DNA of 64,000 nucleotides. It comes from Myxococcota bacterium. Its GTDB lineage: Bacteria; Myxococcota_A; Bradymonadia; UBA7976; UBA1532. This document shows, piece after piece, positions 137 to 38,295 of the stretch. The notes beneath the pieces are model-generated. The model made no database searches. It was given only the letters and a program-made list of their open reading frames with translations, and was not told where the DNA came from. Both the position numbers and the translations under genes were made by a program. The stretch is from assembly GCA_023150895.1 (NCBI GenBank), contig JAKLJY010000012.1, forward strand, positions 336 through 64,335, given 5' to 3'. The stretch's first letter is position 1, and every line of letters begins with the position of its first letter.

Positions 137-2374
137 TCAGCCTCGGCCCCGGCCCCGGCCCCGAAGGGACCAGACGAGCCCGAGCGCGAAGGCGAAGAGC
201 CAGCCGGGGCGCTGCTCCGGGCCGGCGGCGGTCCGGCACGCGCACCCCGCGCCCCGGGCGAGCATTTCGCCCGGATCGGCCGGATCGGGCGTGGCGTCGG
301 GCTCGGCGGCGGCGGCGTCGGCGGACGGGCGGGCGTCCGTTCCGGTGTCTGCGGGCCGTGCGACGCGGGCGTCACCGTCCGGTTGGGGGTGTGCGCCGTC
401 CGGCTGGGGTTGCGCACCGTCCGGTCGGGGGTGTGCGCCGTCCGGAAGCGCTTGTGCGCCGTCCGGCAGCGCTTGGGCGCCGTCCGCCAGTGCTTGTGCA
501 CCGTCCGGCAGTGCTTGCGCACCGTTCGGCGCGGGCGGGGCGCCATCGGGAACGGGGGCCGCCGCGTCGTCCGAGGGCCAGGGTGCATCGGGGGTGCTCA
601 TCGCCGGTCGATCACCCGGATCGACGACGCTCGCATCCACGAGCGGCGGCAAGACCGCGTCGGACACGGGCGGCGGGCCGGCGGCGTCGGGCACGGGCGG
701 CGGGCCGGCGGCATCGAGCACCGGACCGGCCGCATCGGGCACGGGCGGGGGGCGGGCATCGAGGTCGATGATCGCGGCGTCGAGCAGCATCGCGTCGATC
801 ACCATCGCGTCCGGCAGCATCGCGTCGATCACCATCGCGTCCGGCAGCATCGCGTCGATCTCCATCGCGTCCGGCAGCATCGCGTCGATCACCATCGCGT
901 CCGGTAGCATCGCGTCCGGCACGGCCGCATCGGGCTCGAGGCACTCGTCCGGCACGCCGTCGCAGTCGTGATCCCAACCGTCACAGGCGGCCGGCTCGGG
1001 GCGCCGCTCCCCCTCGCATGCGGCCGCCCAGCGACCCGCGACGCAGGTCTGGAGGCCGGCCGAGCACAGGCCGACGCCGTTCGTCTCGGGCGGGCCGCCG
1101 TAACACGCCCGCGTCAGCGCCACGTCGGCGGCGGGTCCTTCGTCGACCACGCGATCACAGTCCTGGTCGACGCCATCACATCGTTCCGGGTTCCCCGGGA
1201 AACGATCCGGGTCGAGGTCGTCGCAGTCGCCCCCGGCAGGCCGCACGCCGTCCCCGTCCTGGTCCTGATCGGGGGCGGGCTGGACCGTCACCGTGCCCAG
1301 CTTGAGCACATTGTCCGCGGGCAGGGGTTCGCCGGGCAGCACGTCGATCTCGGCGTAGAGCGTCTTGACGCCACTGATGTCCCACGGGAGCGGGACGGCG
1401 ACGCCCTGGGTCACCGCGCAACCGCCGTACGCGGGGATCTCCGGGCAGGCCAGCGCGCCGACCGGCACGTCGTCGAGGCGGAAGCGCACGGGACCGGCCG
1501 GCCGGGGTCGGCTCCCCCGGTGAAAGACCGTGAAGTTGTTGACCTGCACCGCCCCGAGGCCGGCCTGCGCCTGCGCCGGGGCCAGCGTGGCGCCCTGATA
1601 GCGGAAATTGGGGGTCCAGGCGAAGCCCGCAATCAGGGGGTCCGTCGCGTCCGTCGCGATCTGAGGCCGGTAGAGGCGCATCGTCGCCACGTCGTCGGGC
1701 AGCATGGGCACGTTGCGAAACGGCAGATACGACGGGTTCATCACCGCGGCCGCGCGCTCCTCGTGCTGCAGGCCCATGGCGTGCCCGTACTCGTGGATCA
1801 GAATCTGCCGCAACCCGTACTTCATCTGCGGTGTATTGAACGTCCGGACGGCCTCCTCGTCGTCCACCGTGAACGGTTGCTCGGCGATGGCGACCACATC
1901 GACGTCGAGTTGCCCGCCGGCGGCGGCGGGCTGGCAGGCGTAGAAGCCGTCCGGCGGCAACGGACAGAACCCCCACGGCGCGCCGGGCGGCCGGGTGACC
2001 GGGATCGTGGTGACGCCGAGCACCTGCGCGGGCACCGCGAACCCCCAGCGTTGGGAGACCTGCGCACGCGTCAGGCGCGCGACCGAGTGGACGCCGTCGC
2101 GCGGGGCCGCCACGTCGCGCGACGGCGCGAGCCGCGTCCAGTGGCCGAGGAAGTGATTCCAGTGATTCAACGCGTCGAGCGGCGCGGCCATCAGCGGCGT
2201 GTTGTCACACGTCGAATTGTTGATCTTGACGCAGAGGTTGAGCGCCTGCGGCAGCGACTGCCAATCGAGGCATGCGCAGCCGGCGCGGGCAAGCACGGGT
2301 GCCATCACACCGAGCAGGGCCACGAGCCCGACCAGCGCACGCGTGACGCGACGTAACGGAATGGTCGCGCTCAT
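137..2374 (-). CDS. secreted zinc metalloprotease, matrixin-like (M10 family) with C-terminal MYXO-CTERM sorting signal
   Basis: Motif LILIHEYGHAMGLQHEE...AVMNPSY matches HExxHxxGxxH plus a Met-turn. The start was moved to an internal ATG (aa 133 of the track ORF) that opens a signal peptide, MSATIPLRRVTRALVGLVALLGVMAPVLARA. The C-terminus GAGCACRTAAGPEQRPGWLFAFALGLVWSLRGRGRGRG fits a MYXO-CTERM-type signal. Pro/Asp/Ala-rich tandem repeats lie at the 3' end. An ATGA overlap joins it to the upstream gene. Confidence 0.7.
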   Translation of the reverse strand: MSATIPLRRVTRALVGLVALLGVMAPVLARAGCACLDWQSLPQALNLCVKINNSTCDNTPLMAAPLDALNHWNHFLGHWTRLAPSRDVAAPRDGVHSVARLTRAQVSQRWGFAVPAQVLGVTTIPVTRPPGAPWGFCPLPPDGFYACQPAAAGGQLDVDVVAIAEQPFTVDDEEAVRTFNTPQMKYGLRQILIHEYGHAMGLQHEERAAAVMNPSYLPFRNVPMLPDDVATMRLYRPQIATDATDPLIAGFAWTPNFRYQGATLAPAQAQAGLGAVQVNNFTVFHRGSRPRPAGPVRFRLDDVPVGALACPEIPAYGGCAVTQGVAVPLPWDISGVKTLYAEIDVLPGEPLPADNVLKLGTVTVQPAPDQDQDGDGVRPAGGDCDDLDPDRFPGNPERCDGVDQDCDRVVDEGPAADVALTRACYGGPPETNGVGLCSAGLQTCVAGRWAAACEGERRPEPAACDGWDHDCDGVPDECLEPDAAVPDAMLPDAMVIDAMLPDAMEIDAMLPDAMVIDAMLPDAMVIDAMLLDAAIIDLDARPPPVPDAAGPVLDAAGPPPVPDAAGPPPVSDAVLPPLVDASVVDPGDRPAMSTPDAPWPSDDAAAPVPDGAPPAPNGAQALPDGAQALADGAQALPDGAQALPDGAHPRPDGAQPQPDGAHPQPDGDARVARPADTGTDARPSADAAAAEPDATPDPADPGEMLARGAGCACRTAAGPEQRPGWLFAFALGLVWSLRGRGRGRG
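375..533. repeat. in-frame 21-bp tandem repeat (~7 copies; PDGAQAL heptads) inside the protease gene
   Basis: Unit ccgtccggNNggggNtgNgcg read directly from the sequence. Confidence 0.7.
785..925. repeat. in-frame 30-bp tandem repeat (~4.5 copies; DAMLPDAMVI) inside the protease gene
   Basis: Unit cagcatcgcgtcgatcaccatcgcgtccgg repeats near-identically. Confidence 0.8.
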
Positions 2375-2985
2375 CGGGCCGCCCCCCGGGTCACCAGGGC
2401 GCGCCACCGCGTGTCCACCCTTCGCGCTGCAGCGGGTGGCCGTGGGGCCTGCCCCGCCGGGTAGACGATGCGGGGATCGGGCGGCGCGTCGAGTACGAGC
2501 CCCTCGGGCGTCACGTCGACGATCTTCCGGCCATCCAGCGTGCGAAACGACCAACCGCCCGGCGCGCGGTCGGCCTGGAAGGCGCCGTTCTCGCCGGCGA
2601 CCGTGGCGGGCACCTGCGGCAGTTCGACCTCGGCCGGCAGAAAGAGCAGGTAGGTGCCCCCCGGCGCGAGCACCGGGTTGCCGGCGATCACGGCCCGGGC
2701 GCCCGTCTGCGCATCCCGCACGGTGCGCACCTGCCGGAGCGCGAGGCGCCCCGAGCGAGGACCCCGCCACGTCTCGTGCACGACCAGCGACAGGACGTCG
2801 ATCTCGGCCCCCTCGGGCGTCACCGCGCGTCGGGCGGATTCGATGGTCGCGATGACGACCTGCTCCGCGGCCGCGGCCACCGTGGACGGCGTCTGCGGGC
2901 GATACGTCAGCGCCCGGGCATCCTGGCCGGCGAGCACGAGTCCGGCGACGAGTCCGAGAGAAAGCGCACGCGACGGTCTGGGCAT
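2371..2985 (-). CDS. hypothetical secreted protein (signal peptide), co-transcribed with the metalloprotease
   Basis: Internal ATG (aa 261 of track ORF 2371..3765) opens a signal peptide, MPRPSRALSLGLVAGLVLAGQDARA. An AGGA sits about 5 nt upstream. The stop overlaps the protease start in an ATGA arrangement. Confidence 0.5.
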   Translation of the reverse strand: MPRPSRALSLGLVAGLVLAGQDARALTYRPQTPSTVAAAAEQVVIATIESARRAVTPEGAEIDVLSLVVHETWRGPRSGRLALRQVRTVRDAQTGARAVIAGNPVLAPGGTYLLFLPAEVELPQVPATVAGENGAFQADRAPGGWSFRTLDGRKIVDVTPEGLVLDAPPDPRIVYPAGQAPRPPAAARRVDTRWRALVTRGAAR

Positions 2986-23556: not shown

Positions 23557-25296
23557 CTACTCCCCCACCCCGGTCACCCGCCGCACGCCCGTCCGGAGGC
23601 CGTTTGCGCTGGCCGTTCCGCCGAACCGCGGGCGCGAGAGGACGAGCCAACGCTTGACGTCGCCCTCGACGAGGCAGAGGTCGCCGGTGTCGACGGGGAA
23701 GCCCGCACCGGCGATCTGGATCGGCGGCGCGTCGGGCGGGCGGGAGGCGAGCAGGGTGTAGCCGTCGAGGGGAAGCGGCGCGCCGGCGACGTCGAAGAGG
23801 GTCGCCATGACATCGACGTGGGCGGAGCGGTCGATCTCGCGAGCCGGAGCCGCTCCGGCCGGCAGGCAGAGGATCAGCGGCACCTCGACGCGAACGCGGT
23901 GAAACCGGTTCGTGCCATGGCCGAGCTGTCCGTCCTCCCAGAACGCCTCGCCGTGGTCACCGACAATGGCGATGAACGTCTCGGGCCCCTGCGCGGCGAG
24001 CACCCGGCCGAGCTGGCGGTCGACCCACCGCACGGCGTTCAGATACCGCGCGCGGATGGCATCGGCCCTGTGTCGCATCCGGTCGCCACCGAAGAGGTCG
24101 GCGAAGTCCGGTCGCGCGTGGCGGCCGTAGGGGGTGAAGTCCGGCGGGGCGTCGTAGTCGAAGTGCGTGGCGTCGAAGAACAGAAAGCCGAACGCCGGCG
24201 CACGTCCGGTGCGCGCGAGCGCAAAGTCGGCGATGAGACTGTCGCGCACGGCGGCCGAGGGGTGGTCCGGCTCGTGGTAGGCCTCGAGCTGATCGACCAT
24301 CAGCGCGGCACCGTTCCAGGCCCGCAGCGCCGAGGCGGATGCCCCCCAGGTGTGATAGCCGTTGTGTCGAAGCGTCGAGAGCGTGAGGGCCGGGACGGGC
24401 GGCTGCGCCTCGGCGAAGGGGATGAACCGGTGCGCGTCGAGACCGTAGATCAGCGAGAAGATGCCCTGCTCCGTCGAGGTCCCGCTCGCGAAGTGTTGCC
24501 GGGAGACCAGACAGCCCCGCTCGGCCGCGTAGCGGCTCACGATGGGCATGTGTTCGGGCGTGAACGCGTCGGCCCGGAGGGACTCGACGGCAACGAGCAG
24601 GATGTCGGGTTTCGACCGCATCGTGGGGGGCCCGCCCGCCGGAAACGCCGGCACCGGGACGTCGAGCGGGCCGGGGGGCACGGCCCCGAACAGGGGCTCG
24701 AAGAGGGTGAGGGCGCGGGCCATGCCCGTTTCGGGCGCGAACGCGGTCTGCCCGGCCGCGGCGAAAACGAGGGCGGCGAAGAGGCCGGCGGAGGCGACCC
24801 GCCGCGGCCACGGCCCCGGCGTCGGTCGGGTCTTCATGAACCGAACGACCGCCCCGGTGAGTGTGAGGAAGAACGCCAGACACACCCCGCCGACGAGCAG
24901 AAAGACCCCCGCGCCGAGGTGCATCTCGCGGTTGGGCTCGGCGTTGTCGAGCGCCCGCTGCACGATGGGCCAATAGAGGTGCAGTCCCTGGGCGGCGGCC
25001 ACCTGCAGGTCGATGAGGTGCAAGCTCCAGGTGAGCCCGCCGGCGAAAACGAGGCCCGCCGCCGCCGCACGCGGCCAACCGAGTCGCGCCATCGCGCGGG
25101 CGAGGGCACCGGTGCCGACCGCCAGGAAGACCGACAGCGCGAGACCCCAGGCGAAAGCCGCGACGAGGTCGACGGTGGACGTCGTGACCTCGAACGTCTG
25201 CAAAAGTCGCGGCAGCGTCCAGGCCTGGATTGCGAAATGGGCCGCCGCGAGCACGGCCGTCGCACGCCAGAGCGCGCCCTCGACGCCGGGTGTCAT
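23557..25296 (-). CDS. sulfatase-like hydrolase/transferase (LTA-synthase / phosphoethanolamine-transferase-like) with N-terminal multi-TM domain
   Basis: About 5 TM helices, then a sulfatase domain (ILLVAVESLRADAF, IAIVGDHGEAFWEDGQLGHG). Start is the internal ATG at the first TM (MTPGVEGALW). An alternative ATG is at 25440. Confidence 0.6.
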   Translation of the reverse strand: MTPGVEGALWRATAVLAAAHFAIQAWTLPRLLQTFEVTTSTVDLVAAFAWGLALSVFLAVGTGALARAMARLGWPRAAAAGLVFAGGLTWSLHLIDLQVAAAQGLHLYWPIVQRALDNAEPNREMHLGAGVFLLVGGVCLAFFLTLTGAVVRFMKTRPTPGPWPRRVASAGLFAALVFAAAGQTAFAPETGMARALTLFEPLFGAVPPGPLDVPVPAFPAGGPPTMRSKPDILLVAVESLRADAFTPEHMPIVSRYAAERGCLVSRQHFASGTSTEQGIFSLIYGLDAHRFIPFAEAQPPVPALTLSTLRHNGYHTWGASASALRAWNGAALMVDQLEAYHEPDHPSAAVRDSLIADFALARTGRAPAFGFLFFDATHFDYDAPPDFTPYGRHARPDFADLFGGDRMRHRADAIRARYLNAVRWVDRQLGRVLAAQGPETFIAIVGDHGEAFWEDGQLGHGTNRFHRVRVEVPLILCLPAGAAPAREIDRSAHVDVMATLFDVAGAPLPLDGYTLLASRPPDAPPIQIAGAGFPVDTGDLCLVEGDVKRWLVLSRPRFGGTASANGLRTGVRRVTGVGE

Positions 25297-25487
25297 CGAC
25301 GGCGCGGCCGGCGGCGGGGCGCAGTGGCGAGGGACCTGGGGGTGGGTCGCGACATGCCCGAAGCCTCGCCCAGGCCCGCGCGCGAGGCAAGGCCGGGGCG
25401 TTCGGCCACCAGCGTTTTCACGGCGACCGTTTGCGGACATGATGCGCGGGTGCCCGAGACGTGCTCCGCCCCCGAGGAGAAAAGCCC

Positions 25488-26246
25488 GTGACCTCTGCCT
25501 TCCGACCCATTCTGGCTCCGCTGATCGTCGCCCTCGCGGGCGCGCGCCCCGCGCTCGCTCACATTCAGCTCGACGACCCCCCGGCGCGCACGACGCAACA
25601 GAAGGACGGCCCGTGCGGCGCGGCGGGCAGCCCCCGTGGTGCGGCGGTCACCGTCTTCGCGCCCGGCGAGACCATCACCGTGCGCTGGCGCGAGACCATC
25701 AATCACCCGTCCCACTATCGCATCGCGTTCGACGCGGACGGCGATGACGACTTCGCCGATCCGGCGGACTTCATGGACTTCTCGGGCAATCCGACGGTGC
25801 TTCTCGATGCCATCGGGGACCGCGCCGGGGGCGACTACAGTGCGTTGGTGACCCTGCCGGACGTCGTCTGCGAAACCTGTACCCTCCAGCTCGTTCAGGT
25901 CATGTACGACAAGCCGCCCTACGGCGACGGCAACGATCTGTACTACCAGTGCGCCGACCTCGCCCTGCGACGCGCAGAAGCGCCCGGGCCCGACGCCTCG
26001 CCCGATGAGGCGCCCGAGCCCGACGCGGCGCCCGAGCCCGACGCCGTGCAGCCGGTCGTCCCCGAGGTCCCCGAGCCGGCGCCCGACGAGCTCGCCGACG
26101 CGGGCCCCTCGACGGCGCCCCCCGATACCGCCGACGACGACGGGGAGGGCTGTACGGCTCGCCCCGGCACATCGACGCCGGCCGTGTCGGGTCTGTTCGC
26201 GGCCGGGCTCGTCGCCGCTGCACTCGCGCGCCGTCGCCGCCGCTGA
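25488..26246 (+). CDS. secreted protein with predicted N-terminal His after signal cleavage and C-terminal MYXO-CTERM (possible copper-binding CopC/LPMO-like fold)
   Basis: A GTG start is preceded by GAGGAG 9 nt upstream. Signal peptide MTSAFRPILAPLIVALAGARPALA|HIQLDDP. Pro/Glu/Asp-rich linker. C-terminus GCTARPGTSTPAVSGLFAAGLVAAALARRRRR. Confidence 0.5.
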   Translation: MTSAFRPILAPLIVALAGARPALAHIQLDDPPARTTQQKDGPCGAAGSPRGAAVTVFAPGETITVRWRETINHPSHYRIAFDADGDDDFADPADFMDFSGNPTVLLDAIGDRAGGDYSALVTLPDVVCETCTLQLVQVMYDKPPYGDGNDLYYQCADLALRRAEAPGPDASPDEAPEPDAAPEPDAVQPVVPEVPEPAPDELADAGPSTAPPDTADDDGEGCTARPGTSTPAVSGLFAAGLVAAALARRRRR

Positions 26247-26252
26247 GCGCGC

Positions 26253-28763
26253 TCAGCCGCGGACGTCGACCGCACGCAGCGCCAGCACGCCGACGCCGCC
26301 GAGGGTGCGGATGGCGACGCGAATCTGATCGCCCGCATCGGGCTGCCAGCGAACGACGAGGCCATCCCCGTCGATGGCCCCGGACGCCGAGGCCCACCGG
26401 GTCGAAGCCGAACCGAGCGCGCCGACCACCCGAACCTCGATCGCACCGTCGACCGCGCGTGCCTCGAGTCGCAGATCGGGCGGCGCCCAGAGGGGCAAAT
26501 CCGTCGAGCGCGTCGCCCGCCGCGGCGCCGTGTCTCGCCACTGATCGATGCCCGGGGTGCGCGGGGGCGCATTCATCGCCTGGTCCGGCGGCGGCGGGTC
26601 GACGGGACCGGGCACGAAGACGTCGGGCTCGAGTCCGGCGTCCGGCGGCGGCGGATCGACGGGACCGGGGACGAACACGTCCGGGGACAGACCGGCATCC
26701 GGGGGCAGGGGGTCGACCGGGCCGGGGTCGAAGGCATCGGGCGCCAGGCCGAAGTCCGGCGGCGGGGGGTCGACCACCAGGAAGTCCCCCGTCTGGCCGC
26801 CGAATCCCGCGTCGGGCGGCAATGGATCGGCCACCATGCCACCGAAGCCCGCGTCGGGCGGCAACGGATCGGCCACCATGCCGCCGAAACCCGCGTCCGG
26901 CGGCAGCGGATCGGCCACCATGCCGCCGAAACCCGCGTCCGGCGGCAGCGGATCGGCCACCATGCCGCCGAAGCCGCCGTCCGGGGGCAGCGGGTCGACC
27001 ACCATGCCACCGATGCCCGTGTCCGGCTCGGGGTCCGGGCTCGGGCTGCCCGCGTCGTCACACGCCGCCGCCGTGACCGCCGCGGCGGCCAGCGAGGCGC
27101 CGAGCGCCAGGTGCTTCACCCCCCGGGCGACCCGGCGCACGCCGCCGGCCACCCCCCGAGCGGCCCGAGCCTCCCGCGCCGCCGCGGCCATGTCGGCGAA
27201 GAGTTCGTCGAGTTCGGCGTGCCGAACGTGGTCGGCGGCCGCAATCCGCAGCCCGAGCAGGGCCGTATCGCGCGTCAGGGCCTCGGCGCCGTCGGCCGTG
27301 TCGAGGGTCGCCGCGCGGGCGAGGGTCAGCGCTTCGTCGAGGAAGTCCGCCGTCTCGAGGGCAATCGCCCGCGTCAGCGCGCGGCACCGGCGCCGGAAGC
27401 CGTCGTGCCGCGCCGCGCCGAGCTCCGGATGGAAGTGTTCGAGCACCACCTGCGTGTACCCGAGTCCCATGTAGCGGTTGGCCACCCCCGTCGGATCGAA
27501 GTTGCGCTGCCGGAAAGCCGCCGACGTGATGCGGAACAGAAGCTCGGTGCGATCGTCCGCAATGCGGTAGTCGTACCCGAGGTAGCTGCCCGAGAGCCCC
27601 CCGCGGGCGGCGAGCGTCGCGGCGAGGGGCGTGCCGGCATAGGGCTCAGCGCGACAGAAGTTGACCGGGTGGTCGGCGTGTTCGCGGATGAACGCGATGT
27701 TCTCGGCGACGTCGTCGAGCCGTGCGTCGGGCTCGAAGATGAGCAGGTTGTAACAGACGAAGATGCCGGCCTCCCGGCAGGCCGCCAGCGCCGCGTCGAC
27801 GTGCTGCGTCTGCCGCGCCCGGTTCAGATGCAGTGCGCCCATCTCGGAGGCGTTCTCGACCCCGACGTACAGCCGAATGACACCCAGGTCCCGAAGGGAA
27901 CGGGCCAGCTCCGGGGTGACACAGTCGGGACGACACTTGCCGATGAGACCGATGCGACCGACGCCGCGGGCATCGAGCGACGCGCGGATCGCGCCGAGCC
28001 GGGTGAGGGTGTCCTCGGGGCGGGGTTTCAGCAGGTTGTCGTCGTGGAAACAGAACAGGGACGGCCCGCCCTCGCGATGCCAGAGCGTCGCCATCTCGGC
28101 GGCGACGTTTTTGGGGCTGCGCTCACGGAACGTGCGACCGCCGCCGTGCCCGCGAGCGTCGCGGAACGTGGACGTGATGGAACAGTAGGTGCACGCCCCC
28201 CAACACCCGCGGCTCGCCATGATCGGGATGAAGGGCACGCCGAGGTGGCGGGTGGCGCGGCGGTAGCGCAGGGGCGCCGGCAGCGCGTCGAGCGCGTCGC
28301 TCAGGGGCCGGCCCGCCGTGCGCCGCGGGAGGCCGTCGGCCGTGCGCAGCGCCAGACCGGGGAGGTCGTCGAGGGGCGCGCCGCTCGCGAGCGCCTGCAG
28401 AAGTTCGAGGAACGTCGCTTCGCCGTCGTTGAAGACGACCGTGTCGAGCCCGTTCTCGGGGAGGAGGACCTCCCGCCACGCCAGCGACGGGAACTGTCCG
28501 CCGCAGGTGACGTGCCCCCGAAACCCGCACGCCCGCAGTGCCCGCGCGAGCGCGATGAAGTCGTGTGCCCGGTGCTGGAACTGCATGCTCAGACCCACGA
28601 CGTGGGGCCGGTGGGCGAGGCAGGCCCGCGCGACGGCGGCCATCTGGTCGAAGTGGTCGTAAGTGACGATGCGGACGGTGTGCCCGGCCCGCTGCGCAAC
28701 GGCGGCGATCATCCCGACGCCCAGGTTCTCTTCGAAGTCCGCGCCGACGAGGACGATACGCAT
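26253..28763 (-). CDS. B12-binding domain radical SAM protein; the ORF continues without a stop into a TM/lipobox-like segment and Pro-rich tandem repeats
   Basis: An AGGAGGAGA RBS lies 8 nt before the ATG (MRIVLVGADFEENLG). B12-binding-like N-terminus. Radical SAM motif CWGACTYCS (CxxxCxxC). From aa ~543 the sequence reads RRVARGVKHLALGASLAAAAVTAAAC (a signal-peptide/lipobox look with three in-frame GTG codons) and then 5x GFGGMVADPLPPDA. Confidence 0.65.
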   Translation of the reverse strand: MRIVLVGADFEENLGVGMIAAVAQRAGHTVRIVTYDHFDQMAAVARACLAHRPHVVGLSMQFQHRAHDFIALARALRACGFRGHVTCGGQFPSLAWREVLLPENGLDTVVFNDGEATFLELLQALASGAPLDDLPGLALRTADGLPRRTAGRPLSDALDALPAPLRYRRATRHLGVPFIPIMASRGCWGACTYCSITSTFRDARGHGGGRTFRERSPKNVAAEMATLWHREGGPSLFCFHDDNLLKPRPEDTLTRLGAIRASLDARGVGRIGLIGKCRPDCVTPELARSLRDLGVIRLYVGVENASEMGALHLNRARQTQHVDAALAACREAGIFVCYNLLIFEPDARLDDVAENIAFIREHADHPVNFCRAEPYAGTPLAATLAARGGLSGSYLGYDYRIADDRTELLFRITSAAFRQRNFDPTGVANRYMGLGYTQVVLEHFHPELGAARHDGFRRRCRALTRAIALETADFLDEALTLARAATLDTADGAEALTRDTALLGLRIAAADHVRHAELDELFADMAAAAREARAARGVAGGVRRVARGVKHLALGASLAAAAVTAAACDDAGSPSPDPEPDTGIGGMVVDPLPPDGGFGGMVADPLPPDAGFGGMVADPLPPDAGFGGMVADPLPPDAGFGGMVADPLPPDAGFGGQTGDFLVVDPPPPDFGLAPDAFDPGPVDPLPPDAGLSPDVFVPGPVDPPPPDAGLEPDVFVPGPVDPPPPDQAMNAPPRTPGIDQWRDTAPRRATRSTDLPLWAPPDLRLEARAVDGAIEVRVVGALGSASTRWASASGAIDGDGLVVRWQPDAGDQIRVAIRTLGGVGVLALRAVDVRG
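26585..27015. repeat. in-frame tandem repeats (about 57-bp units x3 then 42-bp units x5) encoding PPPDAGLxPDVFVPGPVD and GFGGMVADPLPPDA
   Basis: Direct reading of 26590-27015 shows a near-identical 42-bp unit (ccgcgtcgggcggcaatggatcggccaccatgccaccgaagc) repeated five times. Confidence 0.8.
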
Positions 28764-28896
28764 GGCCGATTCTCCTCCTGCCGATTCCACCTTGAACACC
28801 GTGAATCCGACGGGAGGAGACGCTGGCACGTTCGGGCCCGACGGCGCCTTGACGCGGGTCACGCCCTGCCGACGAAGGGCCGGTGCTTGACGCGGA

Positions 28897-31881
28897 TCAC
28901 GGGATGGCGCGGGCCCGCAGCGCGAAACCCAGGTCGTCGTCGCCGTTGACGTCGCCGCCGAAGTCGAGCCGGTGGAAGAGACCGTCGCCCATGGTGCTCG
29001 TGCAGCGCTGGCCATTGGCCTCGCCGGCGAGCGCGCCGGGGCAAGGCCCCCACCCCGCCGCGCCATCCCCCGGGCCCCGGTTGCTGTCGGCCCACCCCAT
29101 GAACAGGGCGACCGACTGCTGCAGCGCGGCCGCGCGCCCCGGATCGGCCGGGTCGGAGCACTTGAACGCGATCGCGAGGTCGTCGTTGGCGTCGACGTCG
29201 CCCTCGAGGTTGATCTTGCGGAACGTGCGGTCGTACCCCGACGACGTGCAGCGCAGGCCGTCGTTGTCCCAGTTGAGCGCGGGCGGGCACTGACCCCAGC
29301 TCTGCGTGCCGTCGGGCCCGCGGTTTTCGTCCGCGTATCCCAGGTACACGGCGCAGTGCGTCTGCACGTAGTCCGCCAGGGCCGGCGCGCCGGGGTCGTC
29401 ACACAGGAAGGCGAACGCCAGGCGGTCGTTGTCGTCGACGTCACCGGCCAGGTCGAGCTGCATGAACAGACCGTCGCGTCGGGTTCCGACACACCGGATG
29501 CGGTCGCCGTACCACTTGTCGGCGTTGAAGGGACACTCTCCCCAGGCGTTCGATACGCCCACGGGCCCCCGGTTCTCGTCCGACCAGCCGACGAACCACC
29601 GGCAGGCCTGCTGAATGAACGGCCCGCACGCCCCGCCATCGTCGATGACACCGTTGCAGTCGTCGTCCACGCCGTTGCAGGTCTCGGCGGGCTCCGGTCC
29701 GCAGCCGTTACAGCGATTGCGCTGACCTTCGTCCACCTGTCCGTCGCAGTCGTCGTCGGCGAAGTTACACACCTCGGCGCCGCCGTTCTGCGCGGTGCAG
29801 GCGTACTCGCAGCCGTTCTCCGCGACGCCGTCGAGGTCGACCCGGCCGTCGATGCACGCCTCGAAGACACACTGTCCCGAGACACAGCCGACGATGGCAC
29901 CGGGCCGCTCGCAGCGCGTTCCGCAGAAGCCGCAGTTCTCCGGATCCGTCTCGCGATCGAACGTTTCGTCGGTCTGCCCGTCGCAGTCGTTGTCGACCCC
30001 GTCGCAGGCCTCCACGCCGCCGTTCGAGACGAAACAGCCGAACTCGCACCCGTTCTCGGTCAGGCCGTCGAGATCCGAGAAGCCGCCGAGGCACTCCGTA
30101 ATGATGCAGCCCCCCTCCAGACACCGACCGACGGCGTTGTCGAGGGCGCACCGGTGGTCACACCGCCCGCAGTTCGCCGGATCCGTCAACAGATCGATGC
30201 CTTCGTCGATCTGCAGATCACAGTCGTCGTCGGCCCCGTTGCAGATCTCGACGCCGCCGTTGAAGGGCGTGCACCGATACTCGCAGCCCGTGCCGGGGTC
30301 GCCGTCGCCGTCCGCGAACCCGTCCTCGCACCGTTCGACGCGACACGCCCCCGCCACACAGCTCGAGACGGCGTGCAGCAACTCACAGCGGGCGCCACAG
30401 GCACCGCAGTGGTCGGGATCGTTGGCGAGGTCGGTCTCTTCGTCGACGGCGCCGTCACAGTCGTTGTCGATGAGATCGCAGCGTTCGAGTCCGTCATTGC
30501 TCGGGAAACACCCGTACTCACAACCGTCGGCCGCGTCGCCGTCGACATCGTGCCAACCCGGTTCGCAGGCCCCGCGGCAGGCGGCCCCCTCGCAGACGCC
30601 GGCGCGGTGGGGCGACTCGCAGACGACCCCGCAGGCGCCGCAGTTCCGGGCATCCGTCGCGACGTCGTAGCCCTCGTCGACGGCGTCGTCGCAGTCGTTG
30701 TCGACCCCGTCGCAGCGTTCGCCGCCGTCGAACCCCTCGTCGACGTCGCCGTCACAGTCGTCGTCGGCCCCGTTGCAGGTCTCGATCGCGTCCGGGCTCG
30801 GGAGGCAGAGATACTCGCAGCCGTTGCCGGCGTTGCCGTCGGCATCGTGCCAACCGGCCTCGCATTGGCCCGGGTGACACTCGCCACCGACACAAAGCGC
30901 AGCGGCGTTCGGGAATGTGCAGACGCGCCCGCACAGACCGCAGTTCGAGGCATCGATGCCGAGATCGAAGGCCTCGTCGACGGCGCCGTCGCAGTCGTTG
31001 TCGAGCAGGTCGCAGGTCGTCTCGTCGGCCTCGTAGGTGCCCGGGTAGGCGCACGCCCAGGTGCCGGACTGGCAGCGCTGGGGGGTGCCCGCGCAGACGC
31101 CGCGGTCGAGGCAGGCGGGCAGGTCGACGGGGACCTGCAGCAGCTCGAGCTCGTCGGCCAGGCTGTTGCAGTTGTTGTCCCGGCCGTCACAGCGCTCGGG
31201 CGCGCCCGTGTAGACGGTGGCATCGGTATCGTCGCAGTCCGCCCCGAGGCAATCGCCGCCGTCCCCGAAGCCGTCTCCATCTCCATCCCGACAGGGGAGA
31301 CAGCCCTCGCCCCCGGCCGGAACACACTGTCGACCCCGCGGCGTCACGCGATCCGCCTCGAAGACGTCCGTGCAGACATACCCCTCCGGGCAGAGGCCGT
31401 CCGCCGCGCAATCCTCGCCGCAGTACGTGCCGTTGCCAATCTCCAGACAGAGATCCTCGGTGTCGTCGCACTCGCGATCGGTCTGGCAGGGTTTGCAGAG
31501 GTCCGGGCGGTCCACGGTGCAGACGTTGATGCGATCGGCGCCGGTATTGCCAATCAGCGTACACTCGTACCCCTCCGGGCAGTCGCCGCAGAGCTGCGTA
31601 CAGATGCGTCCCGCCTCGAGGCCTTCGATACAGAAGCCCGCGAGACACTCGGCGTCCGCCTCGCACGGCTCGCCGAAACCGCGCGGGCGCGCCCCCGTGT
31701 CCGGCTCGTCGACGCGGGCGTCGAGGGGTGGGCGCAGGGCGTCGCCGGCCTCGGCATCCGGGACACCGGCCTCCGCCGACGAACCGGCCGAGATCGCGTC
31801 ACCGCAGGCGGTCGAGAAGAGAAGCGCGGTCATCGCGGCGGCGCGACGGCCGACGGCGGGGCGTCGGGGGCGGTTCTGCAT
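28897..31881 (-). CDS. large Cys-rich repeat lipoprotein (CDGxDNDCDGxVDE-type putative metal-binding repeats; 3x C-terminal GWxDxNRGP repeats)
   Basis: Start at the internal ATG giving MQNRPRRPAVGRRAAAMTALLFSTAC (lipobox). At least 8 copies of CNGADDDCDG/CDGVDNDCDG-type motifs. The first 249 aa of the track ORF are a spurious extension. Confidence 0.65.
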   Translation of the reverse strand: MQNRPRRPAVGRRAAAMTALLFSTACGDAISAGSSAEAGVPDAEAGDALRPPLDARVDEPDTGARPRGFGEPCEADAECLAGFCIEGLEAGRICTQLCGDCPEGYECTLIGNTGADRINVCTVDRPDLCKPCQTDRECDDTEDLCLEIGNGTYCGEDCAADGLCPEGYVCTDVFEADRVTPRGRQCVPAGGEGCLPCRDGDGDGFGDGGDCLGADCDDTDATVYTGAPERCDGRDNNCNSLADELELLQVPVDLPACLDRGVCAGTPQRCQSGTWACAYPGTYEADETTCDLLDNDCDGAVDEAFDLGIDASNCGLCGRVCTFPNAAALCVGGECHPGQCEAGWHDADGNAGNGCEYLCLPSPDAIETCNGADDDCDGDVDEGFDGGERCDGVDNDCDDAVDEGYDVATDARNCGACGVVCESPHRAGVCEGAACRGACEPGWHDVDGDAADGCEYGCFPSNDGLERCDLIDNDCDGAVDEETDLANDPDHCGACGARCELLHAVSSCVAGACRVERCEDGFADGDGDPGTGCEYRCTPFNGGVEICNGADDDCDLQIDEGIDLLTDPANCGRCDHRCALDNAVGRCLEGGCIITECLGGFSDLDGLTENGCEFGCFVSNGGVEACDGVDNDCDGQTDETFDRETDPENCGFCGTRCERPGAIVGCVSGQCVFEACIDGRVDLDGVAENGCEYACTAQNGGAEVCNFADDDCDGQVDEGQRNRCNGCGPEPAETCNGVDDDCNGVIDDGGACGPFIQQACRWFVGWSDENRGPVGVSNAWGECPFNADKWYGDRIRCVGTRRDGLFMQLDLAGDVDDNDRLAFAFLCDDPGAPALADYVQTHCAVYLGYADENRGPDGTQSWGQCPPALNWDNDGLRCTSSGYDRTFRKINLEGDVDANDDLAIAFKCSDPADPGRAAALQQSVALFMGWADSNRGPGDGAAGWGPCPGALAGEANGQRCTSTMGDGLFHRLDFGGDVNGDDDLGFALRARAIP

Positions 31882-31953: not shown

Positions 31954-32577
31954 ATGTCCACGCGCCCGCCCTCGTCGTCCCCTGCCCCCGCCGCGCCGCC
32001 GTCGACCGCCCGCGAGATCGACCCGGAGCTGCGCGAGCTGCGAACCTATACGCTCTTCCGGTCGCTCAACGAGGTGGAGCTCGGGGTGGTCCGCAGCCTG
32101 CTCGAGCCCTTCGTGATCGACCGCGCCGGTGGCCTCCTCTTCGACCGCGGTGCTGCGCCGGACGGCGCCTGGCTGGTGCGCCAGGGCACCCTGCGCGTGG
32201 AGATTCCCCGCCCGGAGGAGCGTGTCCTGGAGATTGCGCGCCTCGGGCCGGGCACGACGGTCGGCGAGCTGGCGCTGGTCGACCCCGCACCCCGCGGGCT
32301 GCGCGTCCGCGCCCTCGAACCCTGCAAGCTCTGGCGGGTGGACGGCGAGCGGTTCCAGGCCCTGCGCCGCCAGGGCAACCCGACGGCCTACCGCATCGTG
32401 CGCAACGTGGCCCTGATGATGTGTGACCGCCTGCGCTCCAACAACCTGCTCATCGAGCACGAGCGCCTCACGCAGCGCACGCTCGTGACCGCCGAGCTGA
32501 GCCGCACCGCGGCCCCCGCGGAGAGCCCGTCGACGACCTCCATCTGGTTTGCGCTGCGCGGCCTCTTCGGCGCCTGA
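31954..32577 (+). CDS. cyclic nucleotide-binding domain protein
   Basis: cNMP-binding signature GTTVGELALVDPAPRGLRVRALE. Confidence 0.7.
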   Translation: MSTRPPSSSPAPAAPPSTAREIDPELRELRTYTLFRSLNEVELGVVRSLLEPFVIDRAGGLLFDRGAAPDGAWLVRQGTLRVEIPRPEERVLEIARLGPGTTVGELALVDPAPRGLRVRALEPCKLWRVDGERFQALRRQGNPTAYRIVRNVALMMCDRLRSNNLLIEHERLTQRTLVTAELSRTAAPAESPSTTSIWFALRGLFGA

Positions 32578-33152: not shown

Positions 33153-34193
33153 ATGTTGATGATGCGCCCCGCCCGCCCGGACGACCTCGACGGTCTGATG
33201 GGCCTCGCCTCGAACGCCGGGGTCGGCCTGACGACGCTGCCCCCCGACCGCCGGCTTCTCCGCGATCGCATCCAGCGCTCACAGCACGCCTTCGCGTCGG
33301 ATCCGGTCAAGGCCGGCGGCGAGGCGTACCTGCTCGTCCTCGAGGACCTCCGCAGCGGCGCCCTCGCCGGGACGTGCGGCATGGTCGCCAAGGTCGGCGG
33401 CTTCGAGCCTTTCTACAGCTACAACGTGCAGAACACCGTCCACGAGAGCCCCGAGCTCAACGTGCGGCGTGAGATTCCGACGCTGCACCTCGAGGCCGAC
33501 CACGCCGGGCCGAGCGAAATCGGCACGCTGTTCCTGTCCGGGGCGTTTCGGGGCGGCGGCAATGGCCGGTTGCTCTCCCTGTCTCGGTTTCTGTTCATGG
33601 CGGACCACCCGCAACGGTTCGACGCCCAGGTCATCGCCGAGATGCGCGGCGTGCTGACCCCGGCGGGGGACAGCCCCTTCTGGGAAGCCGTCGGGCGACA
33701 CTTCTTCGACATGGAGTTCGCCCGCGCCGACGTCCTGAGCGCGGCCGACAAGAAGTTCATCGCCGATCTCATGCCGAAACACCCCATCTACATCCCGATG
33801 CTGCCGCCCGACGTGCAGAAGGTCATCGGCGTGGTGCACGTCGAGACGCGGCCGGCGCTGCGGCTGCTCGAGCAGGAGGGGTTCCGCTTCGGCAATCACG
33901 TCGACATCTTCGACGCGGGCCCGCTGCTCTCCGCGCCGCGCGAGTCGATCCGCACGATTCGGCAGAGCGTCTGCGCGGTCGTGCACGACATCGTCGCCGA
34001 GGTCGGCCTGCCGGAGACGTTCCTGATCAGCAACGCCCGCATCGACTTCCGCTGCTGTCTCGGGCACCTGCGCGTGCTGACGGGGGACGCCGACGGGCGC
34101 GGAGCGTCCAAGGTCGAACTCCCGCGCGACCTCGCGCTCGCACTCGGCATCCGGGTCGGGGAGACGATCCGATACTCGCCGGCGCGCGCTTGA
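33153..34193 (+). CDS. astA: arginine N-succinyltransferase (AstA family)
   Basis: Collinear with recalled E. coli AstA at several blocks (ELNV..PTLHL, AEMRGV...SPFWEAVGRHFFDMEFARAD, FIADLMPKHPIYIPML, VIGVVHVETRPA, LEQEGFRFGNHVDIFDAGP). GGAG RBS. Confidence 0.75.
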   Translation: MLMMRPARPDDLDGLMGLASNAGVGLTTLPPDRRLLRDRIQRSQHAFASDPVKAGGEAYLLVLEDLRSGALAGTCGMVAKVGGFEPFYSYNVQNTVHESPELNVRREIPTLHLEADHAGPSEIGTLFLSGAFRGGGNGRLLSLSRFLFMADHPQRFDAQVIAEMRGVLTPAGDSPFWEAVGRHFFDMEFARADVLSAADKKFIADLMPKHPIYIPMLPPDVQKVIGVVHVETRPALRLLEQEGFRFGNHVDIFDAGPLLSAPRESIRTIRQSVCAVVHDIVAEVGLPETFLISNARIDFRCCLGHLRVLTGDADGRGASKVELPRDLALALGIRVGETIRYSPARA

Positions 34194-34248: not shown

Positions 34249-35235
34249 ATGCAAACTGCGTTGATGTGGGGGCAGCTCTTCCTGGGCGCCCTCGTCCTGT
34301 ATTTCGGCGCGGAGTGGCTGGTCAAGGGCGCCGCCGGCCTGGCCCGCGCGTTCGGCATGCCACCGCTGATCATCGGCCTCACGGTGGTCGCCTACGGCAC
34401 CTCCGCACCGGAGCTGACCGTCGGGGTGTCCGCGGCCCTGTCGAATCAGGGTGCCATCGCCCTCGGCAACTCCATCGGCTCCAACATCGCCAATCTGGGG
34501 CTCATCCTGGGCATGACGGCGCTGATCAGCCCGCCGCGCGTGGACGGCAGCCTCATCCGGCGCGAGCTGCCGGTCCTCGTCCTGACGACGCTGGCGCTCC
34601 CGCTGGTGCTGCTCGACGGTGAGATGTCGCGGCTCGACGGCGCGCTGATGATCCTCGTGGCGGTGGTCTATAGCGTGTGGATGATCCGCGCGGCGCGCCG
34701 TGATCCCGCCCTGGGCGCAGAGGTGACCGCCGCCGAAGCCGAGGCGGAGGCCGGGGCCGTCGGGGCGGGCGCACCGCCGGTGGAGGGGCGCGGGCGGATG
34801 GCTGCCGTGGCGCTCGTCGGCCTCGTTTTGCTCGTCGTGGGCGGCAAGGTCTTCGTCGATGCGGCCGTCGAGATCGCCCGGGCGGCCGGCATGAGCGAGC
34901 GCGTCGTCGGGTTGACGATCGTCGCCGTCGGGACGTCGCTGCCGGAGCTGGCCGCGTCCCTCGTGGCCGCGCTGCGGGGGCACAGCGACATCGCGGTCGG
35001 CAACGTCATCGGGTCCAACATCTTCAACATCGTCCTGATTCTGGGCGGCTCGGCGCTCGTGCGGCCGTTGTCGGGCGACGTCGGCGCGATGACGCTGGAC
35101 CTGGCGTTCCTGGGCGGCATGACGCTGCTCGGCGTCGTCTTCATGCGCACCGCCCGGTTCATGCCCCGCATCGAGGGCGCCGTCTTCCTGATGGCCTACG
35201 TCTCCTTCCTCATCGCGCTCGTCGTCGGCGGCTGA
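34249..35235 (+). CDS. Ca2+/Na+ antiporter (CaCA family, YrbG-like)
   Basis: Two alpha-repeat signatures, GTSAPEL and GTSLPEL. About 10 TM helices. Confidence 0.8.
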   Translation: MQTALMWGQLFLGALVLYFGAEWLVKGAAGLARAFGMPPLIIGLTVVAYGTSAPELTVGVSAALSNQGAIALGNSIGSNIANLGLILGMTALISPPRVDGSLIRRELPVLVLTTLALPLVLLDGEMSRLDGALMILVAVVYSVWMIRAARRDPALGAEVTAAEAEAEAGAVGAGAPPVEGRGRMAAVALVGLVLLVVGGKVFVDAAVEIARAAGMSERVVGLTIVAVGTSLPELAASLVAALRGHSDIAVGNVIGSNIFNIVLILGGSALVRPLSGDVGAMTLDLAFLGGMTLLGVVFMRTARFMPRIEGAVFLMAYVSFLIALVVGG

Positions 35236-36737: not shown

Positions 36738-37214
36738 ATGACTGGCACCTACGCCCACAAGCTCGTGGGCGAACCCCTCGAATTCGGCGCCGTGAACGGG
36801 GGCGAACCCTTCCCCGTCGTGCTCGCGCGCCTCGACGTCTATCGCCCCGCCGGCGGCGAGGCCCTCCCCGCCGTGCACGCCCTGCTCGACGTCGACTACG
36901 AGACGTACGTTCGCATGGACGAAGCCGGCGCCTTCGGCTTCTCCCTCTTCTCCGTCGATCCGGCGACGGCGAACGCACAGTTCACCAACGCCCGCGACCT
37001 CGAGCTCACGCTGCGCGCCGACGCGGCCCTTCTCCCGGGCGACGCGGCGAGCATGAGCGACGGCGCGCTTCTCGACGCGATGCTCGCCGGCCTCACCGAC
37101 GATCCCGACCGCTTCCTCGACCCCAACGCCTGGCAATGGCTCAGCGTGTTGCAGGCAGCCACTCCGGGCGGTCCGGCCCTCTCGGGCATCCGCTCGAAGT
37201 TTCCGCCCCGCTGA
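36738..37214 (+). CDS. hypothetical protein
   Basis: The ATG lies 18 nt after the upstream stop. 158 aa. Start is the internal Met of track ORF 36561..37214. Confidence 0.45.
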   Translation: MTGTYAHKLVGEPLEFGAVNGGEPFPVVLARLDVYRPAGGEALPAVHALLDVDYETYVRMDEAGAFGFSLFSVDPATANAQFTNARDLELTLRADAALLPGDAASMSDGALLDAMLAGLTDDPDRFLDPNAWQWLSVLQAATPGGPALSGIRSKFPPR

Positions 37215-37260
37215 CCACCACGCCCGATCGAACACACCCCCGAAAGACACGAACGCAGCC

Positions 37261-38295
37261 ATGACCGCCCACGCGACCGACGCCGAACTCCCCATCCTCG
37301 ATTTCGTCCTGACGAACTACAAGAACTTCAACGCCCGTGCCACGCGGGACGCGCTGATCGCTTACTGGCGACACATTCAGGGCGGCGGCAAGATGTTCTG
37401 GGCGGTCGCCGGCGCGATGTCGTCGGCGCAGCTCGGCATCACGCTCGCCCCGGCCATTCGCGCCGGCCTGATCCACGGCCTGAGCGTCACGGGGGCCAAC
37501 CTCGAGGAGTCCCTCTTCCGCCTGGTCGCCCACCACGGCTACAAAGACTTCCCCGACTACCGCTACTTCACCAAGGACGACGACACGCGCATCCTCGAGG
37601 ACCGCATGCGGCGGGTGACGGACACGAGTATCCCCGAGGATGAAGCGTTCCGGGCCGTCGAACAGGTCATCGTCCCGATGTGGACGCAGGCGACGGCCTC
37701 GGGCGAGCGCCGGTTCTGGCACGAGTACTTCTACGATCTCATCCAGCAGATCGGGCCGGATAAACACGAGGGCAATCCCGACGAGTGCTGGCTGCTGGCG
37801 GCGGCGAAGGCCGGCCTGCCCGTCGTCGTGCCCGGCTGCGAAGACTCCACCTTCGGCAACATCTTCGCCAGTCACGTCAAGCTCGGCGAGTGTTCGGCGT
37901 CGATCGTCAAGTCCGGCATCGAATACATGGCGGCCTTCTACGACCAATACAAGGTCCTCTCGGAGGGGGCCGGGGTCGGCTTCTTCCAGATTGGCGGCGG
38001 CATCGCGGGGGACTTCCCCATCTGCGTCGTCCCGTCCATCAAGTACGATCTCGCCGAGCCCGTGAAGCCCTGGGCCTACTTCTGCCAGATCTCCGACAGC
38101 ACGACGTCCTATGGCTCGTACTCGGGCGCGACGCCCAACGAGAAGATCACCTGGGACAAACTGACGCGCGATACGCCGATGTTCGTCATCGAGTCGGACG
38201 CGACCATCGTCGCGCCGTTGCTCCTGCGCGCGCTGCTCGAGTGCAAGGCGCACCCCGAGGCCGCCGACGCCCTCATCGCCCGCCGCCTGGGCTGA
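37261..38295 (+). CDS. deoxyhypusine synthase family protein (DHS-like)
   Basis: KMFWAVAGAMSSAQLGITLAPAIRAGLIHGLSVTGANLEE and FQIGGGIAGDFP resemble the DHS (PF01916) NAD/spermidine-binding blocks. Confidence 0.65.
   Translation: MTAHATDAELPILDFVLTNYKNFNARATRDALIAYWRHIQGGGKMFWAVAGAMSSAQLGITLAPAIRAGLIHGLSVTGANLEESLFRLVAHHGYKDFPDYRYFTKDDDTRILEDRMRRVTDTSIPEDEAFRAVEQVIVPMWTQATASGERRFWHEYFYDLIQQIGPDKHEGNPDECWLLAAAKAGLPVVVPGCEDSTFGNIFASHVKLGECSASIVKSGIEYMAAFYDQYKVLSEGAGVGFFQIGGGIAGDFPICVVPSIKYDLAEPVKPWAYFCQISDSTTSYGSYSGATPNEKITWDKLTRDTPMFVIESDATIVAPLLLRALLECKAHPEAADALIARRLG

Follow-up and report, generated by a model that had tools for sequence, protein, structure and literature searches.

Radical S-adenosylmethionine (SAM) enzymes are regarded as soluble catalysts of the cytoplasm, and the signals of lipoproteins as strictly confined to the N-terminus. 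In the class B radical SAM enzymes (OxsB, TsrM, MgmA, Mmp10, TokK, CysS, HpnR/HpnP, BchE and ApyD) a B12-binding Rossmann-like domain is followed by a partial TIM barrel with a CxxxCxxC motif, and the precursors of bacterial lipoproteins, which are handled by Sec, Lgt and LspA and described by PROSITE pattern PS51257, carry a basic n-region, a short h-region and a [GAS]-Cys lipobox with G, D or S after the cysteine. Both sets of features occur in one polypeptide encoded by the stretch of Myxococcota DNA analysed here, 64,000 nucleotides (nt) of contig JAKLJY010000012.1 with a G+C content of about 72%, hereafter called the window. The gene is an open reading frame (ORF) of 836 codons on the minus strand (26253-28763), delimited by its translation and by full-length homologues, and its product contains, in this order, a B12-binding domain, a radical SAM domain, a helical domain, an internal lipoprotein-type signal, a Pro-rich linker, a conserved motif and an Ig-like domain. 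As judged from the comparison of homologues, the fusion is real, conserved and translated as one chain. In its architecture, the predicted design makes this protein a new variant among enzymes of a known class. The architecture itself is solid and surprising, and the family, which has at least 180 members and is widespread in uncultured Myxococcota, breaks both of the above expectations in one polypeptide.

The ORF starts with an ATG at 28763, located 7 nt downstream of the Shine-Dalgarno-like sequence AGGAGGAGA (28771-28779, minus strand, read off the sequence), and ends with a stop codon at 26253-26255. An earlier inspection of the letters alone (the sequence-only reading) had described a strong ribosome-binding site, a CxxxCxxC motif and an ordinary cytoplasmic-type B12 radical SAM enzyme of about 540 residues, whose frame runs without a stop into a lipoprotein-like region. 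The sequence together with Pfam matches confirmed the first part of this description, and the second was confirmed as well: the frame passes without a stop from the enzyme part into RRVARGVKHLALGASLAAAAVTAAAC, where Cys568 (codon 27062-27060) is followed by DDAGSP. When the window gene was compared with its two closest relatives, L005 and L006, the ratio of nonsynonymous to synonymous substitution rates fell between 0.09 and 0.35 in all five segments compared, among them the signal, the linker and the C-terminal domain, and the G+C content at third codon positions was highest in frame 1 along the whole gene. Every segment is under purifying selection in one frame.

A homologue search of 5.8 billion proteins gave 589 matches at E<=1e-10, the top 120 of which have lengths of 715-838 residues and in most cases align over 100% of the query. 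The same architecture is shared by more than 180 full-length homologues, with 44-97% identity, from metagenome-assembled genomes (MAGs) of Myxococcota. In two alignments, one of 21 (A1) and one of 120 sequences (A2), with 52-97% identity to the window protein, the parts follow each other in the same order in every sequence, and Cys568, R752 and W806 are invariant. Among GTDB species, each represented by one genome, 116 relatives were found; all of the 80 listed are MAGs, nearly all labelled Myxococcota (Polyangiales, Sandaracinaceae, Nannocystaceae and Haliangium), and the closest among these 80, at 84% identity, is labelled Bradymonadia. The sequence-only reading had put forward two possibilities, namely a radical SAM enzyme tethered to the membrane and carrying a periplasmic repeat domain, or a separate lipoprotein gene starting in the same frame, and the full-length homologues bear out the architectural part of the former. 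The thought that a sequencing or assembly error erased a stop codon and thereby fused two neighbouring genes has nothing to recommend it but the unusual architecture; given that the full-length fusions are independent, derive from many samples and assemblers and keep a constant spacing, and that purifying selection acts in one frame across all segments, its probability is practically nil. Several MAGs hold two to four fusion paralogues on different contigs (L014/L027/L067 in MAG M_MetaBat.197, L035/L043/L053/L063 in MAG SJ883, and further L025/L030, L017/L033, L034/L066, L041/L069 and L018/L077), often with one paralogue whose C-terminal half is far more divergent and whose tblastn match covers only residues 1 to ~590.

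Whether a lipoprotein is translated from an internal start within the radical SAM ORF was judged from the same genes. In the window gene three in-frame GTGs and one ATG (27191) lie 5' of the h-region, which is what such a nested gene would need. The GTGs had been noticed by the sequence-only reading and are present, although with their first bases at 27152, 27140 and 27119 (minus strand) rather than at 27132, 27117 and 27096, and none of them has a Shine-Dalgarno-like sequence at the proper distance. Moreover, 79 genes of the family were read as DNA, and their n-region, taken as 15 codons, was compared with control windows of the same genes. An ATG, GTG or TTG of any kind was found in the n-region of 47 of the 79 genes (59%, against 54% of the control windows), an ATG in 25% (21%), and a start plus a Shine-Dalgarno-like sequence in 9% (6%), indicating that starts are not commoner here than in the controls, and the remaining 32 genes have no possible start in this region at all. 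After the FCRAEPY motif the frame is open for 350-500 codons in all 79 genes, none of which has a stop past the enzyme part. A stop codon after residue ~540 and orthologues split into two genes, which had been named beforehand as the findings that would speak for separate genes, were both looked for among the homologues, and neither was found. With no stop between the parts in any orthologue, every ribosome that translates the enzyme goes on to translate the lipoprotein part as well. The proposal of a separate in-frame lipoprotein gene thus fared badly, and we consider it very unlikely. Three seemingly standalone genes for the C-terminal domain were also discarded: P0148 and P0122 are contig-edge fragments that start 45 and 20 nt from the contig ends, and P0132, on a 1.4-kb contig and with an unrelated N-terminus, is probably the result of an insertion sequence or a chimera.

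With regard to the enzyme part, sequence and structure comparisons identify residues 1 to ~540 as a radical SAM enzyme of the cobalamin-dependent class B that carries a helical domain in addition, and for which cobalamin binding and SAM chemistry are predicted. The B12-binding (Rossmann-like) domain (residues 11-121; 28401-28733, minus strand) was recognised by Pfam PF02310 (E=4e-15; 56 bits versus a cut-off of 32), by the AlphaFold2 (AF2) model and by Foldseek matches to OxsB, TsrM and MgmA, and it precedes the partial TIM-barrel radical SAM core (residues 176-400; 27564-28238, minus strand), which matches PF04055 at residues 184-343 (E=6e-14). The cluster motif C187-x3-C191-x2-C194 (CxxxCxxC, residues 187-194) is encoded at 28182-28205; its second and third cysteines, C191 and C194, never vary among the 120 sequences, at least 90% of which also have C187. 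The helical domain (residues 401-542; 27138-27563, minus strand) was delimited in the AF2 model and contains a conserved TALLGLRIAAAD motif. This model, which was built with the 120-sequence alignment, has a predicted local distance difference test score (pLDDT) above 90 over residues 1-535, comprising the Rossmann-like domain, the partial TIM barrel and the helical domain, and shows a long helix (residues 490-562) that extends from the helical domain into the hydrophobic segment described below.

Foldseek matched the enzyme part to OxsB (E=1.5e-19), MgmA (4.9e-18) and TsrM (1.3e-16), and also to AprD4, CysS and TokK, at 13-19% identity. None of the named B12 radical SAM equivalogs in NCBIfam (ApyD, HpnR, HpnJ, BchE, MgmA, PhpK, KedN5, BzaD) reached its cut-off, the best scores being 94.6 for ApyD (cut-off 750), 84 for HpnR (650), 67 for HpnJ (578), 58 for BchE (481) and 52 for MgmA (360). 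As no family cut-off was even approached, the enzyme represents a branch of class B outside the curated families; assignment to a named B12 radical SAM family was dropped in view of these scores, sequence searches of the PDB giving weak matches only. Four further cysteines, C238, C277, C337 and C370 (codons within 27652-28052, minus strand), are conserved throughout the family and lie on barrel strands 2, 3, 5 and 6 of the AF2 model. Where OxsB and AprD4 could be aligned with these positions (C337 in OxsB; C277, C337 and C370 in AprD4), neither has an equivalent cysteine. Their placement in the barrel resembles that of the in-barrel [2Fe-2S] ligands of biotin synthase, and by this analogy, a lead only, they may mark an auxiliary in-barrel Fe-S site.

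The internal lipoprotein-type signal comprises residues 543-568 (27060-27137, minus strand), with RRVARGVK as n-region, HLALGASLAAAAVT as h-region and AAAC as lipobox, the codon of Cys568 being at 27060-27062. The window protein fits the PS51257 lipobox core {DERK}(6)-[LIVMFWSTAG](2)-[LIVMFYSTAGCQ]-[AGS]-C as LAAAAV-TA-A-A-C. The strict form of this core was found at the internal site in 76 of 120 homologues and at 3 other places in their 89,442 residues, which argues that the internal lipobox is more than chance. Across 118 aligned homologues position -1 is G in 62, A in 50 and S in 5 (117/118 together), and position +2 is G in 48, D in 28 and S in 23 (99/118). The 10 residues before the hydrophobic stretch have a median net charge of +3, and the uncharged, Ala/Gly-rich stretch ahead of the cysteine has a median length of 17 residues. 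The [GAS]-Cys pair is present in 179 of 182 full-length members, the others being one with R-Cys and two, P0232 and P0271, that have the hydrophobic stretch and no cysteine. In all genes read the cysteine site lies 186-201 residues downstream of the FCRAEPY motif. By these comparisons, residues 543-568, with their short h-region rich in Ala, Gly and Leu, have every sequence hallmark of a signal peptidase II (SPase II) signal except the N-terminal position: lipoprotein rules place the cysteine within the first ~15-35 residues, and here it is residue 568. Searching NCBIfam with the 836-residue protein gave no MYXO-CTERM match, and full-text literature searches brought up neither an internal lipobox nor this family. 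Tat export was set aside, the n-regions having by eye mostly a single Arg (xRxL) and not a twin-arginine motif. A second cysteine follows 1-4 residues past the lipobox cysteine in 29 of the 179 members (as CDGC, CNAC, CEC or CGC), for example in P0021, P0029, P0068, P0071 and P0055 and at loci L024, L025, L034 and L040.

Behind Cys568 follows a disordered Pro/Asp/Gly linker with DPxPPD repeats (residues 569-735; 26559-27059, minus strand), defined by Tandem Repeats Finder (TRF) and a pLDDT below 50; 45 of its 167 residues are P, 27 D and 27 G, and in the AF2 model disorder extends over residues 561-737. The sequence-only reading had counted five perfect 14-residue repeats. The repeats are real, although there are four perfect GFGGMVADPLPPDA copies (residues 597-652) with one imperfect copy ahead of them. 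At the DNA level TRF found two tandem arrays, one of 42 nt x 5.5 at 26796-27027 (90% matches) and one of 57 nt x 3.4 at 26583-26775. In homologues the distance from the cysteine to R752 ranges from 74 to 323 residues, with a median of 129. In P0001, which is 96% identical to the window protein, the 14-residue units differ in number and type from those in window residues 583-660. Such differences between near-identical homologues suggest that the array expands and contracts fast while staying in frame. The sequence-only reading had also likened the repeats to the Pro/Asp/Ala-rich ones in a MYXO-CTERM protease of the same window; this likeness holds for composition and goes no further. The presence of Pro/Asp/Ala repeats in both the fusion linker and this exported protease is consistent with linkers typical of the exported proteins of this genome.

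The linker ends at a conserved linear motif, IDQWRDTxPRRAxRSxDLPLxxPP (residues 738-764; 26472-26552, minus strand), which was recognised from its conservation. It equals the enzyme core in conservation, with a mean top-residue frequency of 0.66 compared to 0.71-0.73, and is nevertheless only partly ordered in both AF2 models, the pLDDT being low to medium for residues 738-752. R752, in RSxDLP, is invariant even in the divergent proteins P0232, P0271, P0241 and P0270 (see below). The protein ends in a seven-strand Ig-like beta-sandwich (residues 765-836; 26256-26471, minus strand) with a pLDDT of 89-96. The full-length AF2 model is confident for residues 750-836 too, and modelling of the C-terminal domain alone again gave a confident Ig-like sandwich. 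A Foldseek search of this domain against the PDB returned generic Ig matches only, none at E<=1e-3, and Pfam at E<=0.01 had no match in residues 400-836, and thus no TonB C-terminal domain (PF03544). A profile of the domain run against 1.84 billion cluster representatives gave 154 proteins at E<=1e-3. Sequences were read for 32 of the 154; each proved to be a family member or an N-truncated fragment of one and to have the domain right at its C-terminal end, and a few of the weakest matches are large proteins with Big_9, PKD or cadherin-like Ig repeats. The domain is, on this evidence from sequence searches, a family-specific offshoot of bacterial Ig-like domains dedicated to the radical SAM fusion enzyme.

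The explanation that we favour, with moderate confidence, is that of a single precursor, in which the enzyme would stay in the cytoplasm while the C-terminal part would be exported, lipidated at Cys568 and probably cleaved by SPase II. The internal signal would insert N-in/C-out via Sec, so that the Fe-S/B12 enzyme would remain on the cytoplasmic side of the inner membrane while the last ~270 residues would be exported; Lgt would then acylate Cys568, and LspA would probably cut ahead of it. The products would be a membrane-proximal enzyme ending in a signal-peptide remnant and a lipoprotein consisting of the Pro-rich stalk plus the Ig-like domain.

The main rival is a bitopic enzyme that is never cleaved, its signal acting as an anchor that tethers the radical SAM enzyme to the inner membrane, where it would have a lipid or a membrane-proximal substrate and a periplasmic, TonB-like stalk or sensor to position or regulate it. 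An unbroken covalent fusion is most simply explained by a protein that stays whole, and here this rival does better than the explanation that we favour. A type-II topology (cytoplasmic catalytic domain, one pass, periplasmic domain) is common in bacteria, and the disordered Pro-rich linker, spanning the 74-323 residues between the cysteine and R752, would suit it, as would P0232 and P0271, which retain the hydrophobic segment and the linker in spite of the missing cysteine. Weak NCBIfam matches to HpnR and HpnJ, both hopanoid enzymes, and to a B12 radical SAM enzyme of lipid biosynthesis hint at a lipid substrate, but all of these lipid-enzyme scores are far under their cut-offs. Moreover, an uncleaved anchor leaves the near-universal cysteine, with its small residue at -1 and G, D or S at +2, without an explanation, and a disordered linker of 167 residues cannot pass on a conformational signal. 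The h-region, being short, Ala/Gly-rich and weakly hydrophobic for an anchor, looks more like that of a cleavable signal than like a stable anchor. Weighing these points, we regard the uncleaved enzyme as a real, if clearly minor, possibility.

The divergent variants bear on both readings. P0232 and P0271 (L052) keep the four barrel cysteines, the hydrophobic segment and the linker, and lack the lipobox cysteine and the IDQWRD part of the motif. P0241 (locus L085 731-2740) and P0270 are complete genes without the hydrophobic segment and the linker, in which the Ig-like domain is joined directly to the helical domain, and both have lost all four family-specific core cysteines together. Comparison of these variants indicates that membrane insertion is more general than lipidation, and that the four core cysteines behave as one unit. 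P0241 and P0270 also lend some support to a wholly cytoplasmic protein, in which the helix would not be inserted and would serve, for example, in oligomerisation or as an amphipathic helix at the membrane surface, the cysteine would have a different role, such as that of a ligand or cross-link, and the Ig-like domain would bind or present the substrate; the AF2 model, with its hydrophobic segment drawn as an extension of the long helix, can be read in the same way. Against this stand the n-region, h-region and lipobox grammar, which is kept in about 98% of the members, the likeness of the linker to that of the MYXO-CTERM protease, an exported protein of the same window, and the loss of the core cysteines in the very variants that lack the hydrophobic segment, which marks them as a derived, functionally altered branch. 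A wholly cytoplasmic protein is therefore improbable.

It should be underlined that several observations also weigh against the cleaved and lipidated precursor. The strict PROSITE pattern is missed by 44 of the 120 members, mostly because of P, E, D, N or H at position -2, and at -3 Ala outnumbers Leu, Val and Ile. The cysteine-less P0232 and P0271 indicate that lipidation is not obligatory for the architecture, and P0241 and P0270 that the Ig-like domain can sit in the cytoplasm beside the enzyme. Finally, if LspA splits the halves, their strict covalent fusion needs a reason, and modification in cis before cleavage would be a guess at one.

That guess can be given a concrete form. The fusion is never broken, the Ig-like domain is exclusive to the family and no neighbouring gene is conserved (see below), so the enzyme and the C-terminal half most likely work as a dedicated functional pair. 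Our first guess is that the enzyme, before export, works on the unfolded motif or on the Ig-like domain, be it in its own or in a sister precursor; a membrane lipid is the other candidate substrate. The protein-modifying B12 radical SAM enzymes MgmA and Mmp10 are precedents. The full scheme, an enzyme-substrate precursor that modifies its own motif (around R752 and Q741/W742) or Ig-like domain and whose modified part is then exported and cut off by SPase II, is attractive, but must on present sequence comparisons be called speculative and unlikely.

A different substrate was suggested by the gene upstream, which the sequence-only reading had described as a 994-residue Cys-rich, putatively metal-binding lipoprotein that the radical SAM enzyme might modify. 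The description of this gene holds: it encodes a 994-residue MopE-repeat lipoprotein (28897-31881, minus strand) with an N-terminal lipobox (LLFSTAC) and six PF11617 motifs, and lies on the same strand as the radical SAM gene, separated from it by 133 nt. The same layout occurs in L005 and L006, which would fit an operon in which the enzyme matures its neighbour. The suggested modification found no support, since the lipoprotein gene is directly upstream only in the window and these two closest relatives, and the flanks are unrelated in 74 other loci. MopE-repeat proteins are abundant in Myxococcota, and scattered co-occurrence is therefore to be expected. When the 979 ORFs that flank the gene at 77 loci were clustered all against all, no neighbour proved to be conserved, no flanking family being present in more than 7 of the 77 loci, and in three annotated contigs with distant members the neighbours are unrelated. 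An operon partnership is accordingly extremely unlikely, and the fusion gene looks self-contained as judged from its surroundings.

The C-terminal part of the MopE-repeat lipoprotein (28897-29650, minus strand) contains a repeated unit of ~80 residues, with W[SA]D[ES]NRGP at residues 766 and 930 and, by eye, a third similar copy between them; the units have conserved Cys and Trp residues and a DxDxNDD-like acidic motif, and no Pfam match. Divergent from this gene, and all on the plus strand, are genes for a cNMP-binding protein (31954-32577), AstA, an arginine N-succinyltransferase (33153-34193), a Na/Ca exchanger (34249-35235) and a deoxyhypusine-synthase-like protein (37057-38295), none of which recurs near the radical SAM homologues. 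On the other side, a convergent ORF on the plus strand (25461-26246) ends 7 nt from the radical SAM stop codon; it has weak matches to copper proteins (LPMO_10 about at the cut-off, BIM1-like below it), and its frame, taken from stop to stop, runs over the start of a sulfatase-family gene on the opposite strand. At 23557-25440 (minus strand) is encoded a 627-residue protein with a C-terminal Sulfatase domain (PF00884) behind an N-terminal region of ~277 residues, a layout that resembles that of LtaS/EptA-type membrane transferases. Farther away, the MYXO-CTERM protease referred to above, an ORF of 877 residues (137-2770, minus strand), has a zinc-metalloprotease-like HExxH (HEYGHAMGLQHE), Cys motifs of the MopE type and long low-complexity repeats (PDAM/PDGAQ), and its C-terminus is a MYXO-CTERM-like tail (GAGCAC...RGRGRGRG). 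An Rfam scan of the whole window for a riboswitch or other RNA upstream gave no match, and a scan for promoters and terminators gave background levels with no notable pattern.

Use of the internal signal would mean that a site lying 540 residues into a protein, after a folded domain, is within reach of Lgt and LspA, that predictors which look for lipoprotein signals at the N-terminus only would miss such sites, and that the family represents a new way to link a radical enzyme of the cytoplasm with the cell envelope. If the enzyme acts on its own exported half, this would be a new logic of protein maturation, with the enzyme as a giant self-removing 'leader', and the site would be the first natural internal processing site of SPase II.

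Compared with the described systems named at the outset, the class B radical SAM enzymes have no counterpart to the C-terminal helical domain, the internal signal, the exported linker and the Ig-like domain of the window protein, which moreover has only 13-19% identity to the solved class B structures and carries the four family-specific cysteines on its barrel strands. Bacterial lipoprotein precursors have their signal at the N-terminus, whereas that of the window protein begins ~540 residues in, behind a folded, cofactor-bearing enzyme. MYXO-CTERM signals are alike in having a conserved cysteine at the periplasmic end of one hydrophobic helix and a basic cluster on the cytoplasmic side, and their Cys-x-Cys is resembled by the second-cysteine variants of the family. 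In contrast to the window signal, they are located at the extreme C-terminus and run from cysteine to helix to Arg-rich tail; the window signal is internal, has the reversed order (basic, hydrophobic, cysteine) and is not a member of this group. Bitopic proteins of the TonB type share the single hydrophobic pass, the long Pro-rich spacer and the small C-terminal globular domain, but their cytoplasmic part is a short tail, whereas the window protein has a large enzyme, a lipobox cysteine and no TonB_C domain. The nearest concept is FbcH, the cytochrome b-c1 precursor of Bradyrhizobium, an example of polyproteins whose parts are separated at an internal signal peptide. As in the window protein, a single ORF contains an internal signal that is proposed to part the N- and C-terminal products on export. 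FbcH has a type I signal peptidase site and yields two subunits of one membrane complex, whereas the fusion described here has a lipoprotein-type site and its halves would reach different compartments.

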